A stretch of 15,233 nucleotides of DNA from a virus. Below are positions 1-15,233 of this stretch, in pieces. The notes under the pieces are model-generated. The model was not told the DNA's origin. It ran no database searches and saw only the letters and a program-made list of their open reading frames with translations. The position numbers and the translations under genes are program-made. The stretch is taken from the IMG/VR virus record IMGVR_UViG_3300045988_162231, positions 1 to 15,233 of that record; one strand, 5' to 3'. The stretch's first letter is position 1. Each line of letters opens with the position of its first letter.

Positions 1-327
1 AAGAGTTCATTATATAAACTTTTTATGTTCCCCAATTATGTAAACCGAACAAACATACGCAAACCTGCAACCTTAGAGCCGTAACGGTTACAAGGCTTAC
101 AATAACTGGAAATAACTCAAGTTAACATAATATTATTATTATTTTACAAAAAGCCTAAAAGCCTAGAGCCCCAAGGGATAGAGCGAGTTAACAAAATACA
201 AATAAGAAGTTTACATAAAACTATATTATGTAAACTAAAGTATATTATGTAAAGCCAATGTATTACATTTGTAATATTTATTTTTACTCTTTTTATTGAC
301 TTTTATCATTTTTTGTTATAATATAGG
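1..327. repeat. Left inverted terminal repeat (327 bp) of a linear genome; presumed protein-primed replication origin
   Basis: 1-327 is the exact reverse complement of 14907-15233, compared block by block. Identity stops at 328 (tat versus aaa). The window begins and ends exactly at the repeat. It contains arrays of short direct and inverted repeats and a promoter. Confidence 0.95.
296..322 (+). promoter_or_regulatory. ITR-embedded early promoter, left arm (extended -10)
   Basis: Perfect extended -10 TGtTATAAT (314-322). TTGACT lies at 296-301, but the spacer is only 15 nt, which is suboptimal. The predicted transcription start at about 328-330 coincides with the ITR boundary. No other promoter-like sequence precedes the first + strand gene at 399. 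Confidence 0.55.
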
Positions 328-833: not shown

Positions 834-1403
834 ATGGCTAATAAAAAAATTCCAATGACACATGCAAAGGTGTCATTGTTTAATGAAATGAAGAAGTTAG
901 CAAAAAGAGCTAATCAACGTATGTTAAGACTAGAACGACTTACTGGAATGACTGGCTCATTTGCTACTAAACAATTATATGACTATTTAGATAATGGAGT
1001 ATTACAAGCTATTACACCAAAGGGTAGAGTAGCTGTTAAAAAATCTTATTCTATAGATGAAATGAATTCAATTATAAAAGCCTTAAAAGATTTTATGAAT
1101 GATGTATCTACTACCCCTCAAGTAAGAAAATTAGTAAAAGAATATTCGGAACGTATAGGAAAGCCTATTGATATTGAAAGAGCTAATACAATATATCAAA
1201 TTGATACTAATTATAAATGGATATATGAATATTACGAGAGTGATTTTTGGGATATTGCAAGAGAAAGTGTTGTTGAAAATTGGTCGCTTGACGACTGGTT
1301 GGATAAAATACCAGCTAATGCAAGTAAAGAAATGGTAGTTGATGAAGAAATGAGATTAAAGCTTGAAAATTTATATACTTATACGAGGGATACAAAAATT
1401 TGA
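834..1403 (+). CDS. Putative terminal protein (replication primer), 189 aa
   Basis: It lies immediately upstream of the protein-primed polymerase and is translationally coupled to it, as in phi29 genes 3 and 2. The N-terminus is basic (KKLAKRANQRMLRLERL), like the phi29 TP N-terminal DNA-binding region. The C-terminal half is acidic and aromatic. GGGAG (819-823) sits 10 nt before the ATG. The call rests on position and composition only. Confidence 0.5.
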   Translation: MANKKIPMTHAKVSLFNEMKKLAKRANQRMLRLERLTGMTGSFATKQLYDYLDNGVLQAITPKGRVAVKKSYSIDEMNSIIKALKDFMNDVSTTPQVRKLVKEYSERIGKPIDIERANTIYQIDTNYKWIYEYYESDFWDIARESVVENWSLDDWLDKIPANASKEMVVDEEMRLKLENLYTYTRDTKI

Positions 1404-3514
1404 TACATTGGTTAGAATATGAAGGACACATACCAAAAATCAAAGGAAAACGTAATAGGTTTGATAATACAATATATACATTTGATATAGAAACTACTTC
1501 TTATATTATACTAAATGGTAAACAAATGAATACTAAAAAATATTTGAAGTTATCTGATAAAGAAAAAGAACAATGCAAATTTTATGCTTGTATGTATATT
1601 TGGCAATTCGGAATAGACGATAAAGTTTATTATGGAAGAACTTGGGAAGAATTATATCATTTTTTAGAACGTATTGAATGGTTTGCTACAGATGTTAAAA
1701 AATATGTATTTGTACATAATTTAGGTTTTGAATTTCAGTTTTTAAGAAATTATTTTACTTTTTCTGATGTATTTGCAAGAAAAAGTCATAAAGTAATTAA
1801 AGCTACTATGAATGAATTTAATTTTGAATTTAGGTGTAGTTTATTTATGACGAATTTGCAACTTAAAAAACTACCAGATGTTTATAATTTACCAGTAGAA
1901 AAATTAGTAGGTGATTTAGATTACAATAAAATTAGACATTATGAAACAAAATTATCTGATGAAGAATTACATTATTGTGAGAATGACTGTCTGGTTGTAT
2001 ACGAATATATTAAAAAAGAGCTTGAGCAATACGAAACAGTAAAAAATATTCCTTTAACATCAACTGGACACGTAAGACGAGAACTTAAAGATACAGTTCG
2101 AACAAACTATCCATATAGAAATAAAGTTAGAAAAAGTATAAATACTGATGGACATATTTATAATTTACTTATTAAGGCATTTGCTGGGGGTTATACGCAC
2201 GCAAATTGGTTATATACAAATGAGATAGTAAAAGACATTACAAGTTTTGATTTTACGAGTTCTTATCCTTACGTAATGGTAACACATAAGTTCCCAAGTC
2301 GAACTTTTAGAAAATGCAATATAAAAAATAGAAGTCAAATGTTAAAATCTATGGCATATTTATTAGTAGTACGTTTTACAGATATAAGTTGTAAGTATTT
2401 CAATAATTTTATTAGTCAAAATAAATGTACAAAAATTAGGGGCGCTAAATTTGATAATGGTAGAATTATTGGAGCAAAAGAAATAGAAATCGTACTAACT
2501 GATGTTGATTTTTATTTTATTTTAGCTACTTATAGTTGTGAATACGAAATTCTAGAAAGTTATTATTCTAAATATGATTATTTGCCAAAAGATTATATTA
2601 ATTTTATTTTAGATAAATATGTTACTAAAACAAAGTATAAAGGAATTGAAGAAAAAAAGCTAGAATATAATTTAGAAAAAGCAAAATTTAATAGCTTATA
2701 TGGTATGACAGTTACTAATAATATTAAAGATATAGTAGTTTTTGATAATGAGGTTGGCTGGTCAGAATTAAAAATGACAAATGATGAAATAATATCAAAA
2801 TTAGAAAAAGAAAAAAAGGACGGCTTTTTGTCTTTTAGTTATGGTGTTTGGGTTACTGCTTGGGCTAGATATAATCTATTAACTAACGTAATAAAACAAG
2901 ATAAGTTCTGTGTTTATTGTGATACTGATAGTATGAAACTAAAAAAAGGTTTTGACATAAGCTATATAGACGAATATAACAAAAAAGTAATAGAAAAAAT
3001 AAAAGTAGCAAGTAAAGAATTAGAAATAGACATAGACAAATTTAAACCAAAAGATAGTAAAGGAAAAGAACATATTATAGGCTTATTTGATTTTGACGGA
3101 CACTATGAAGAATTTATAACACAAGGGGCTAAAAAATACGCATATACAAAATATATAGATAAATCTAAAATTAATGATAGTATGAACGTATTAAAAGTAA
3201 AAGATGATACGGCATTAATACTTGAAATAACGGTCGCTGGAGTTCCAAAACAAGGGGCTAAAGCACTTAAAAGTTTAAAAGATTTTAAAGACGATTTTGT
3301 ATTTGATTTTAAGTATACAAATAAAAATTTACTTATATATAATGATGAAATGAAACCGTTTGAGCTAACTGATTATAAAGGAAAAACAAGAACAGTTACA
3401 GATAAATATAGTTGTGTTTTAATTCCTACGACTTATGTGTTAGGAAAATCTGAGGAATACGCAAATTTACTTTCAGATGAAAGTTCAGCAAGAGCAATAT
3501 ATAATGAGGAGTGA
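1400..3514 (+). CDS. Protein-primed family-B DNA polymerase, 704 aa
   Basis: Motifs read directly from the translation: ExoI FDIETTS, ExoII HNLGFEFQFL, ExoIII YCENDCLVVYEY, motif A DFTSSYPYVM, motif B KAKFNSLYGM, motif C YCDTDSMKL, KxY GAKKYAY. These parallel the phi29 polymerase motifs. The only in-frame start upstream of ExoI is TTG at 1400, with GAGGGA at 1385-1390. This start overlaps the upstream stop codon (ATTTGA). Confidence 0.95.
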   Translation: MIHWLEYEGHIPKIKGKRNRFDNTIYTFDIETTSYIILNGKQMNTKKYLKLSDKEKEQCKFYACMYIWQFGIDDKVYYGRTWEELYHFLERIEWFATDVKKYVFVHNLGFEFQFLRNYFTFSDVFARKSHKVIKATMNEFNFEFRCSLFMTNLQLKKLPDVYNLPVEKLVGDLDYNKIRHYETKLSDEELHYCENDCLVVYEYIKKELEQYETVKNIPLTSTGHVRRELKDTVRTNYPYRNKVRKSINTDGHIYNLLIKAFAGGYTHANWLYTNEIVKDITSFDFTSSYPYVMVTHKFPSRTFRKCNIKNRSQMLKSMAYLLVVRFTDISCKYFNNFISQNKCTKIRGAKFDNGRIIGAKEIEIVLTDVDFYFILATYSCEYEILESYYSKYDYLPKDYINFILDKYVTKTKYKGIEEKKLEYNLEKAKFNSLYGMTVTNNIKDIVVFDNEVGWSELKMTNDEIISKLEKEKKDGFLSFSYGVWVTAWARYNLLTNVIKQDKFCVYCDTDSMKLKKGFDISYIDEYNKKVIEKIKVASKELEIDIDKFKPKDSKGKEHIIGLFDFDGHYEEFITQGAKKYAYTKYIDKSKINDSMNVLKVKDDTALILEITVAGVPKQGAKALKSLKDFKDDFVFDFKYTNKNLLIYNDEMKPFELTDYKGKTRTVTDKYSCVLIPTTYVLGKSEEYANLLSDESSARAIYNEE

Positions 3515-3520
3515 TGAGAT

Positions 3521-3715
3521 ATGAGTAAGCAAAAAGATTTACAATTTATACAAGGTTTTAGTAAAATATCTATAACTAGTATATGCGAAAAAAATAATAT
3601 ATGTAAACAAAATATTTTTTCTGGAACTGCGTCCGAAAAAAATTTAGCAAAAGTAAAAGAAGAAGTACAAAAAGAATTTGCTAAATTGTATTTACAAGGT
3701 GATGACAATGAGTAG
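3521..3715 (+). CDS. Hypothetical 64-aa protein, possibly a small helix-turn-helix DNA binder
   Basis: ATG at 3521 lies 9 nt after GAGGAG (3506-3511). The ORF is tightly packed between the polymerase and ATPase genes. The segment ISITSICEKNNICKQNIFSG has an HTH-like pattern, but I recognise no family. Confidence 0.55.
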   Translation: MSKQKDLQFIQGFSKISITSICEKNNICKQNIFSGTASEKNLAKVKEEVQKEFAKLYLQGDDNE

Positions 3716-6595: not shown

Positions 6596-6633
6596 AAAAA
6601 TAAACTAGAGGTGATAACCTCTAGTTTTAGTTT
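6594..6633. terminator. Bidirectional intrinsic terminator at the junction of the two convergent arms
   Basis: Perfect 10-bp stem AAACTAGAGG (6602-6611) / CCTCTAGTTT (6618-6627) with loop TGATAA. An A7 run (6594-6600) gives a 7-U tract for - strand transcripts. TTTTagTTT follows the hairpin on the + strand. It lies between the last + gene (stop at 6595) and the last - gene (stop at 6714). Confidence 0.8.
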
Positions 6634-14353: not shown

Positions 14354-14668
14354 TCACCCTTCTATATAATATAAGTTTAAAAATGATTTGTTTGTTATTT
14401 TACCATTAAAATTGTATTCTTTTTGTATATTTTCTTTTGCTGGCTTTAATGCTGTTGTCATCATATTTTCAATGTTCCTTGGACTTACAAAATATAATTC
14501 GGCAAGTTCTTTATAAAGGTCTTTTATAGTATATTTTGGTAGCATTGTTTTACCTTTTGTATATAGCATTAAGGCTGTATTCCAGATTATAAAACCTTTG
14601 CTATTAATATTAAAACCTAAGTTCTTTAAATAATCTGTATTTTCTAAATACTCTTTTGTTTTGCTCAA
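14354..14668 (-). CDS. Stand-alone Spo0A C-terminal (effector/DNA-binding) domain-like protein, 104 aa
   Basis: By-eye alignment to the recalled B. subtilis Spo0A C-domain: IGVPAHIKGYLYLREAI / [28 protein letters not shown] / KPTNSEFI versus LGFNINSKGFIIWNTAL / TIKDLYKELAELYFVSPRNIENMMTTAL / KITNKSFL. No receiver domain is present. I set the start to TTG 14668 (AAAGGGGTGA plus a 5-nt spacer) rather than the track GTG at 14677, which lies inside the Shine-Dalgarno sequence. Confidence 0.6.
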   Translation of the reverse strand: MSKTKEYLENTDYLKNLGFNINSKGFIIWNTALMLYTKGKTMLPKYTIKDLYKELAELYFVSPRNIENMMTTALKPAKENIQKEYNFNGKITNKSFLNLYYIEG

Positions 14669-14685
14669 TTTTATCACCCCTTTCT

Positions 14686-14881: not shown

Positions 14882-14906
14882 ATATTATTACCCCTTTCCT
14901 ATATTT

Positions 14907-15233
14907 CCTATATTATAACAAAAAATGATAAAAGTCAATAAAAAGAGTAAAAATAAATATTACAAATGTAATACATTGGCTTTACATAATATACTTTAGT
15001 TTACATAATATAGTTTTATGTAAACTTCTTATTTGTATTTTGTTAACTCGCTCTATCCCTTGGGGCTCTAGGCTTTTAGGCTTTTTGTAAAATAATAATA
15101 ATATTATGTTAACTTGAGTTATTTCCAGTTATTGTAAGCCTTGTAACCGTTACGGCTCTAAGGTTGCAGGTTTGCGTATGTTTGTTCGGTTTACATAATT
15201 GGGGAACATAAAAAGTTTATATAATGAACTCTT
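14907..15233. repeat. Right inverted terminal repeat (327 bp)
   Basis: It is the exact reverse complement of 1-327. Confidence 0.95.
14912..14938 (-). promoter_or_regulatory. ITR-embedded early promoter, right arm (mirror copy of 296-322)
   Basis: Its sequence is identical to the left ITR promoter because it lies within the perfect ITR. It faces inward toward the - strand early cluster. The first Shine-Dalgarno sequence and ATG follow within ~30 nt of the ITR boundary. Confidence 0.55.

Follow-up and report, generated by a model that had tools for sequence, protein, structure and literature searches.

The inverted terminal repeat of a small phi29-like gut phage as a probable control region for replication and early transcription

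The window analysed here is the whole 15,233-bp stretch of the IMG/VR virus record IMGVR_UViG_3300045988_162231, a linear genome with a GC content of 27.9%, and our subject is the 327-bp inverted terminal repeat (ITR) found at either end of it. By its gene content, the window appears to be the complete or nearly complete genome of a small phi29-like podophage. It carries a protein-primed family-B (type-B) polymerase at 1400-3514, which matches PF03175 and phrog_1907, together with a phi29-type morphogenesis module consisting of a gp16-type packaging ATPase (Podovirus_Gp16), upper and lower collar proteins (Phage_connector), and a Phi29_MCP capsid protein, and it further encodes a gp9-like tail protein, a holin, an M23 peptidase, and an endolysin. 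We propose, with reasonable confidence, that the ITR is a composite control region of this protein-primed genome, in which an origin core, a spacer, and an early-promoter region would follow one another from the end inward.

The genes run inward from either end and converge at a bidirectional terminator (6602-6627). The left early operon comprises a gene for a protein resembling those that bind single-stranded DNA (SSBs), a putative terminal protein gene, and the polymerase gene, while the right early operon (14881 to 13801) consists of four small genes, including a Spo0A_C-like one, and is closed by a second terminator at 13802-13772. Given the placement of these terminators at the point of convergence and at the operon end, the whole genome appears to be read inward from two ITR promoters and from internal late promoters. 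The putative terminal protein is a 189-aa open reading frame (ORF) at 834-1403 that overlaps the start of the polymerase gene and is represented by homologues in 68 of 81 relatives; it is so called by its position only, since family searches gave no match.

Nucleotide searches with the whole genome and with bases 1-400 against GenBank phages gave no match, and the best polymerase identity to GenBank phages, found in human-faecal contigs, Clostridium phage HM2, and Astrithrvirus, does not exceed 37%. Relatives were collected from IMG/VR with the polymerase, capsid, and upper-collar proteins, yielding about 85 related contigs of 13-16.7 kb, and 20 more were found in a scan of species-representative genomes. 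Most of the latter are binned into gut metagenome-assembled genomes (MAGs) of Clostridia, Mollicutes, and other low-GC Bacillota, which hints weakly at the hosts. Close relatives, from independent samples and with about 92-95% nucleotide identity, were obtained through protein look-ups. These phages constitute an uncultured gut clade of ~15-kb phi29-like phages, previously undescribed and uncharacterised, in which the polymerase is universal.

Extent of the repeat and its repeated motifs

The left ITR (1-327, plus strand) shows 100% reverse-complement identity with the right ITR (14907-15233, minus strand), and this identity stops at position 328, so that every left element is mirrored on the right, with position x mapping to 15234-x. 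The 327-bp repeat had been claimed in a preliminary description of this DNA, made from its letters alone, and is exact, as are the positions of all ten motif claims made there. More specifically, ATTATGTAAA starts at 35, 225, and 244, a 13-mer direct repeat at 222 and 241, AATAACT at 101 and 111, AAAGCCTA at 150 and 158, TAGAGC at 74, 164, and 179, and AGTTAACA at 120 and 186, an 11-bp inverted repeat occupies 208-218 and 226-236, and the two palindromes likewise lie where listed, at 81-91 and 261-276. The same description called the ITR GC-richer in places, which applies to the outer 200 bp, with a modest excess (33.5% GC, the genome as a whole having 27.9%); the inner 127 bp, with 17.3% GC, are very AT-rich.

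Direct repetition in the ITR exceeds chance. We count 17 repeated 8-mers, compared to 4.7 +/- 2.8 in dinucleotide shuffles, none of 1000 of which reaches 17, and seven repeated 10-mers, compared to 0.46 in shuffles (again 0 of 1000 with as many). Internal windows of the genome equal these counts in 8 of 286 cases for 8-mers and 6 of 286 for 10-mers. Inverted 8-mers are also enriched as a class (16 of 1000 shuffles), and the 11-bp inverted repeat is unremarkable by its length, being matched in 337 of 1000 shuffles. The direct repeats had also been described as phased, which we do not retain, because the 10-bp peak of AA/TT is matched by 128 of 500 shuffles when all periods are considered, and no periodicity between 5 and 30 bp is significant.

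ITRs are present in more than 25 relatives, with lengths of 281, 240, 214, ~204, 187, 185, 173, 172, 159, 155, 150, 144, 141, 139, and 119 bp, down to ~55-70 bp. Since so many relatives carry them, long ITRs are a trait of the clade, the 327 bp of the window being the longest seen. On database records, we measured ITRs of 350 bp in Mycoplasma phage P1, 236 bp in Cp-1 (perfect; 352 bp at 98%), 210 bp in 44AHJD, ~170 bp in Clostridium phage HM2, at least 101 bp in MT836125, 18 bp in Astrithrvirus, and 6 bp in phi29; those of C. perfringens podophages are 25-30 bp long (PMC3362512). ITRs of a few hundred bp had been assumed to be confined to the Cp-1 group, and this argument from rarity is wrong, because Mycoplasma phage P1, 44AHJD, and the clade relatives have long ITRs as well.

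Conserved and variable segments of the repeat

For the fine-scale comparison, we aligned five near-complete ITR copies from left and right ends of phages from independent samples, plus three partial ones. Invariant columns amount to 98% in segment 1-64, 58% in 65-90, 88% in 91-131, 53% in 132-165, 86% in 166-200, 79% in 201-258, 81% in 259-295, and 100% in 296-324. In a like set of sequences, coding DNA shows 92% invariant columns, with only 6% of the 60-nt windows at 98% or above and none as low as 58%. The two middle stretches, 65-90 and 132-165, thus evolve faster than coding DNA and fall below every coding window, and the ITR is not packed with sites as had been claimed.

The outermost segment (1-64, plus strand), with 62 of 63 columns invariant in the close relatives, has the features of an origin core. 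It reads, from the end inward, a box ATTATRTAAAC, 8 bp, the C tract TTCCCCAA, a second box, and then CGAAC. Box 1, ATTATATAAAC (9-19, plus strand), is a one-mismatch variant of the core box described below and keeps its position relative to the C tract (28-35, plus strand) in relatives; box 2 with its CGAAC extension, ATTATGTAAACCGAACAAAC (35-54, plus strand), is composed of 8-mers that are 5- to 20-fold enriched in the relatives' termini. When 43 contig ends of relatives are anchored on the C tract, they share one layout, in which some 15 nt precede a box ATTAT(N)GTAAAC, and TTCCCC comes about 8 nt after this box, often with a second box and CGAAC behind it. In most of these ends, the tract is placed 32-39 nt from the end of the contig, and typical distances are 37-39 nt for the tract and about 19 and 46 nt for the boxes. 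This layout is found at a fixed distance from the end even in relatives with 52-70% polymerase identity. The C-tract 8-mer occurs in the termini of 16 relatives, compared to 2.6 in controls, and an 8-mer footprint of the window ITR against the termini of 79 relatives stands out at TTCCCCAA, at ATGTAAACCGAACAAA, and at the box copies of 209-237, each being 4- to 20-fold above internal controls. Similarly, the exact 15-mer TTATGTAAACCGAAC lies 13-60 nt from the contig ends of six such phages in IMG/VR, its other matches being scattered background.

The extreme ends, where reiterated nucleotides would permit sliding-back during protein-primed initiation, vary within the clade: many ends in other subclades start with GTGGTA and one starts with AAAGTA, as phi29 does. 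A metagenome scan for the true terminus with the 17-mer GTTCATTATATAAACTT, an ill-chosen pattern, gave 120 random AT-rich matches, none of them ITR-like.

Several of the listed motifs are members of one box family. The core box TTATGTAAAC occurs forward at 10, 36, 226, and 245 and reverse at 121 and 209, and, with at most one mismatch, it has 15 matches in the genome compared to 5.4 expected, 12 of the 15 lying within the two ITRs. AGTTAACA, previously listed as a separate motif, is the same box in reverse orientation: it belongs to box 3, AGTTAACATAAT (120-131, minus strand), and to a weak reverse box, AGTTAACAAAAT (186-197, minus strand), which has two mismatches to the core box. Closer to the promoter lie a palindromic box pair, AGTTTACATAA-N7-TTATGTAAACT (208-236), and a third promoter-proximal box, TATATTATGTAAA (241-253, plus strand). 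Boxes 9-19, 35-45, 121-131, and 186-193 are identical in every sequence covering them (five of five close relatives for each of the last two), box 208-218 is identical in four of five, and 244-253 in five of six. The palindromic pair is kept in the close relatives. These hold a second such pair, completed by a fourth box, in reverse orientation, that comes with an insert of 11 or 23 nt at window position 236/237. From this insert, the ancestral layout appears to have comprised two palindromic units, each with a reverse box, 7 nt, and a forward box, and the window would have lost half of one.

The box is also a feature of the relatives' ends, where its density is 2.86 per kb in the terminal 350 nt compared to 0.28 per kb internally, a difference of about 10-fold. 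Phage-specific variants of the box recur within one ITR (L033 and L051 match 16/16): CCAAAC is found in both box copies of L051, GTCAAAATGRCAAA in both copies of L078, and GTTAACATAAT is reiterated in L086. DnaA, cre, and LexA boxes, compared by eye with the box and with the CGAAC element, gave no good match.

The innermost segment contains a predicted inward early promoter of sigma-A type (296-324, plus strand), with TTGACT at 296-301, a 17-nt spacer, and TAATAT at 319-324; a TGnTATAAT element at 314-322 is an alternative reading. The ITR ends 3 bp beyond this promoter. Its mirror at the right end (minus strand) has its -35 element at 14933-14938 and its -10 element at 14910-14915, and is followed by a predicted start near 14903 and the early operon, so that this ITR, well over 200 bp long, would hold inward promoter elements at both ends. 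All 29 columns of the promoter are invariant in eight sequences from both ends, and a TTGACA-type arrangement, (C)TATTGACA-N16-18-TAnnnT, recurs at the corresponding place in some 50 ends of relatives. Several relatives have an ITR that extends through the promoter into the leader and the ribosome-binding site.

Upstream of the promoter lies an operator-like palindrome, TATTACA-tt-TGTAATA (261-276), whose centre is about 62 bp upstream of the predicted transcription start. Its arms are identical in six of six relatives and its centre is TT, AA, or AT. Of 49 ends of relatives, 15 carry a motif of the form TACA-N2-4-TGTA close to the early promoter, compared to 2.7% of control windows, and AACAWTTTGTA is often present in the promoter spacer of relatives.

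The leader between the left promoter and the first gene shows two further features. A 21-nt hairpin, TCGATAGG-GTAA-CCTAATCGA, lies at 333-353, and some relatives have, between promoter and first gene, a tRNA-like element of ~80-100 nt with a GGTTCGAGTCC T-arm, placed ~60-160 nt upstream of gene 1 in L115 and L116, and at 166-262 in L013 and 14505-14601 in L041. ARAGORN calls an odd tRNA in L013 and L041 and none in L115 and L116. The hairpin of the window looks like both ends of this element joined after an internal deletion. A smaller hairpin at 366-381, just 5' of the ribosome-binding site of the SSB-like gene, has a conserved ACCNAA loop and a stem in three compensating versions, UUGCUA/UAGCAA, UUGUG/CACAA (found in the window), and UAGCG/CGCUA. 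RNAalifold does not call this hairpin, which may act as a translational operator.

The other listed motifs are less well kept. TAGAGC copy 1 is identical in two of five relatives and copy 3 in three of five, and GTAACgGTTAC in two of five. For the AAAGCCTA tandem (150-165, plus strand), copy 1 is identical in two of five relatives and copy 2 in four of five, and the tandem is probably a slippage duplication. In the degenerate 10-bp tandem repeat (..AATAACTGGAAATAACT; 98-117, plus strand), the second copy is identical in all five and the first, with AATAACT copy 1, in three of five; L114 has a perfect tandem of two TGGTAATAAC in its place. Motif conservation in relatives thus holds for the boxes, the palindrome arms, and the promoter and fails for AAAGCCTA copy 1, TAGAGC copies 1 and 3, GTAACgGTTAC, and the first AATAACT. 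TAGAGC copy 1 and GTAACgGTTAC lie in a hypervariable patch (65-90) that occurs as two sharply different haplotypes among phages 92-95% identical, the window and L114 having one and L001, L163, and L160 the other. Both haplotypes can fold an imperfect hairpin of ~9 bp, and the patch may be a site of recombination or a selected structure.

The variability of these motifs bears on the best-surviving alternative to a composite control region, namely that most short repeats are neutral by-products of slippage and duplication in a recombining non-coding end, of which only the extreme end and the promoter would be functional. The low conservation of the two middle stretches fits this explanation, as does the variation of individual motif copies among phages ~94% identical. 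Other signs of it are the 11- and 23-nt indels that create or remove box copies, a 55-nt terminal unit that stands in three tandem copies at one end and in a single copy at the other end of a distant relative (L298, reverse complement, 1-165), and the range of ITR lengths within the clade (60-327 bp). These ITRs clearly undergo duplication and slippage, which would account for the repeats that are not conserved. Nevertheless, the boxes at 121-131 and 186-193 are identical in all covering close relatives and those at 208-218 and 244-253 in all but one, the 10-fold box enrichment at the termini of distant relatives is inexplicable by inheritance of a recent duplication, and the palindrome keeps its arms and varies its centre. 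We therefore consider it rather unlikely that neutral processes explain most of the array. About half of the listed motifs, forming the origin core, the box array, and the promoter/operator region, are constrained, and the remainder look like slippage products. As a separate observation, the ends of L039 and L288 show runs of 7-8-nt repeats (CAAAGAC / CAAGTAC).

Candidate binding proteins and further alternatives

The candidates for a protein that would bind the box are the terminal protein-polymerase pair and a small, weakly helix-turn-helix (HTH)-like 64-aa protein. For the terminal boxes, we favour the terminal protein-polymerase pair, since both the polymerase and the putative terminal protein are universal in the clade, and by analogy with adenovirus, whose pTP-polymerase binds ITR positions 8-17, and with PRD1, which needs the terminal 20 bp (PMC4150772).

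The first left-end gene (399-812) encodes a 137-aa protein with a globular domain and an acidic Thr/Glu-rich tail ending in NDELSF, or D(D/E)LPF in relatives. Such an acidic C-terminal tip is typical of bacterial SSBs. The protein has no family match, and a structure model (pLDDT 63), a fold search of the PDB, and a profile comparison with PDB sequences all gave no usable match. It is 60-96% identical across the clade, above the conservation of the polymerase, and is missing from some relatives that carry the box.

The Spo0A_C-like protein (14354-14677, minus strand) is a stand-alone C-terminal DNA-binding domain, matching PF08769 with 31.9 bits against a cut-off of 25. Its presence raises the possibility that the ITR is a Spo0A-type control region, in which host Spo0A or the phage protein itself would shut the origins and early promoters, as in phi29, where 0A boxes are found at both origins and at the early promoters (PMC2731898). 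Relatives lend some weight to this idea: in at least 13 of them, a perfect TGTCGAA box stands exactly at the transcription start predicted for the ITR promoter, 34 nt beyond the point where the -35 element begins, and 11 keep RVERAMRTA or a close variant, like Spo0A (relatives with the domain or the box include L032, L042, L054, L065, L070, L024, and L046). In the window, however, there is no TGNCGAA in 1-327, the homologous position holds AGTCGAT at the left end (331-337, outside the ITR) and nothing similar at the right end, and the protein has NIENMMTTA instead of the RVERAMRTA-type helix. Moreover, L071 and L086 have the boxes and no detectable Spo0A_C homologue. It is thus unlikely that this protein binds the box, and we regard control of the Spo0A type as improbable here.

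An only slightly less probable explanation is that the boxes are packaging-recognition sites read by the 64-aa protein (3521-3715), acting as a small terminase subunit. This protein contains an HTH-like stretch (ISITSICEKNNICKQNIF), and 73 of 81 related genomes encode a member of its family, in each case immediately upstream of the gene for the packaging ATPase; a homologue search returned only two near-identical sequences. The position of the gene is suggestive at most, and the matches to HTH_7, HTH_19, HTH_Tnp_1_2, and TetR_N are weak and all sub-threshold, while a single-sequence structure model with a fold search was uninformative. Phi29-type packaging, furthermore, recognises the terminal protein-DNA complex instead of a sequence.

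It is also conceivable, if very improbable, that the GC-richer outer ITR (~40-205) encodes a small structured RNA, such as a packaging RNA (pRNA), transcribed outward from a promoter made up of the boxes. In phi29, the gene for the pRNA is at the left end, the Cp-1 record annotates outward promoter signals within the ITR, and the window has a 10/12 promoter-like match on the minus strand (TTTACA-N17-CATAAT, 253 to 225), as well as hairpin potential retained in both haplotypes of the 65-90 patch. The lack of a pRNA elsewhere in the window also speaks for one in the ITR. However, Rfam searches at permissive thresholds find no phi29-type pRNA anywhere in the genome and, at E <= 10, no match of any kind in the ITR, and the fold z-scores of 40-205 on the two strands, only -1.5 and -1.3, are not significant. 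We reject the outward promoter, since the 11-nt insert of the closest relatives destroys the spacing between its -35 and -10 elements.

Finally, metagenomic assemblers can generate inverted duplications and many related contigs break within the repeat, but independent left-end and right-end contigs from different samples join the same ITR to the correct, differing unique flanks, more than 25 relatives have ITRs, and ITRs are expected for protein-primed replication, so that an assembly artefact is barely credible.

Comparison with known systems and a proposed mechanism

The composite control region proposed here resembles several known genome ends. Cp-1 is likewise a phi29-like protein-primed podophage with a long ITR, which, according to its GenBank record, includes the -35 element of an inward early promoter at either end. 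C tracts occur near the ends of Cp-1, 44AHJD, Mycoplasma phage P1, and phi29, and that of Cp-1, TTCCCCCAAT at 34-43, may be compared with TTCCCCAAT at 28-36 in the window; otherwise the two show no detectable sequence homology. The window differs from Cp-1 in having its entire core promoter within the repeat and a reiterated 10-11-bp box as the dominant motif. Mycoplasma phage P1 also has an ITR of several hundred bp. Within this repeat, an inward promoter is annotated at either end, and a C tract is found ~40 nt from the terminus, but the sequence is unrelated, the gene order is different, and there is no evidence of a reiterated box. The short C tract alone is shared with the ITRs of Cp-1 and Mycoplasma phage P1, and blastn gave no match in GenBank phages.

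Adenovirus, with an ITR of ~100 bp, offers a parallel for the placement of the boxes, its core box lying a few bases from the end (8-17, compared to 9-19 or slightly more in the window) and being followed by further protein-binding sites that boost the origin (PMC4150772), where the window has further box copies. Nevertheless, adenovirus is a eukaryotic virus that is not homologous, its auxiliary sites bind host NFI and Oct-1, and the inner ITR of the window is, by prediction, a bacterial promoter instead.

The window shares with phi29 its replication mode, its virion module, and a C tract adjoining the terminus. In phi29, protein p6 has its nucleation site 46-68 bp from the left end and represses C2, an end-proximal promoter (PMC4974454), and a DNA-binding complex near the end both activates the origin and represses the end-proximal early promoter (PMC4974454, PMC2731898), a coupling that is only proposed for the window. 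However, p6 reads bendability and not a sequence box, whereas the window has such a box; no significant 12- or 24-bp periodicity was found in it, and none of its proteins matched the p6 family. Phi29 also combines 0A boxes with its 6-bp ITR, in contrast to the 327-bp ITR of the window, which has no 0A box.

The suggestion that the ITR is an array of sites for origin recognition, protein binding, and transcription control is retained in part: the conserved core, the box family, the operator-like palindrome, and the inward promoter agree with it, while the close packing and the phasing fall away. Most likely, the outermost ~55-65 bp form an origin core that positions the terminal protein-polymerase complex at each end, much as positions 8-17 do in adenovirus. 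The following region (~65-200) would be a loosely constrained spacer, evolving by slippage and short duplications, in which one or two reverse boxes are kept. The last region (~200-327) would serve early-gene regulation and provide the core promoter; it combines the palindromic box pair with an additional box, a dimer-type palindrome near -62, a stretch rich in AT, and the sigma-A promoter. Since the repeat extends only just beyond the -10 element, the two early operons would have origin, operators, and promoter in common and would be switched together. The presence of one and the same box in the origin and again upstream of the promoter suggests a single DNA-binding factor, encoded by the phage, that could couple replication initiation to early transcription, akin to p6 at the right end of phi29.

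Several observations weigh against this interpretation. A genome-wide promoter scan found 110 consensus matches, compared to 108 in shuffles, no better than chance, so the promoter call is drawn from conservation. The box spacings of 26, 17, and 19 bp follow no helical phase, and the difference between own-box and other-phage-box comparisons is modest (4.41 compared to 4.78 mismatches). The window probably falls short of the true end by at least 5 nt, since it begins with AAGAG, with its C tract at 28, and a 98%-identical relative reads TAAAT (5 nt) further outward and another AT (2 nt). As for the proteins, the SSB-likeness of the gene-1 product lies only in its acidic tail, and the 64-aa protein has only sub-threshold HTH matches and an uninformative structure model.

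More tentatively, we can imagine a sequence-specific origin code common to the clade, in which the 11-bp box flanks the C tract within the terminal 50 bp and is reused as palindromic operators upstream of the early promoters in the ITR. A single small protein of the phage, or else the terminal protein-polymerase pair itself, might then couple protein-primed initiation to early transcription at both ends, and the box variants would co-evolve with that protein and define replication incompatibility groups.

The architecture as such is ordinary for long-ITR protein-primed genomes and involves no new principle, since an origin and a promoter within the ITR are known from Cp-1, Mycoplasma phage P1, and adenovirus; what is new is its occurrence in an uncharacterised gut clade. 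Long ITRs are accordingly no peculiarity of Cp-1. The terminal 64 bp, the box, the palindrome, and the promoter are targets for minimal protein-primed replicons or amplification systems, and the comparison shows how the genome ends are constructed in a large uncultured group of ~15-kb gut phages.

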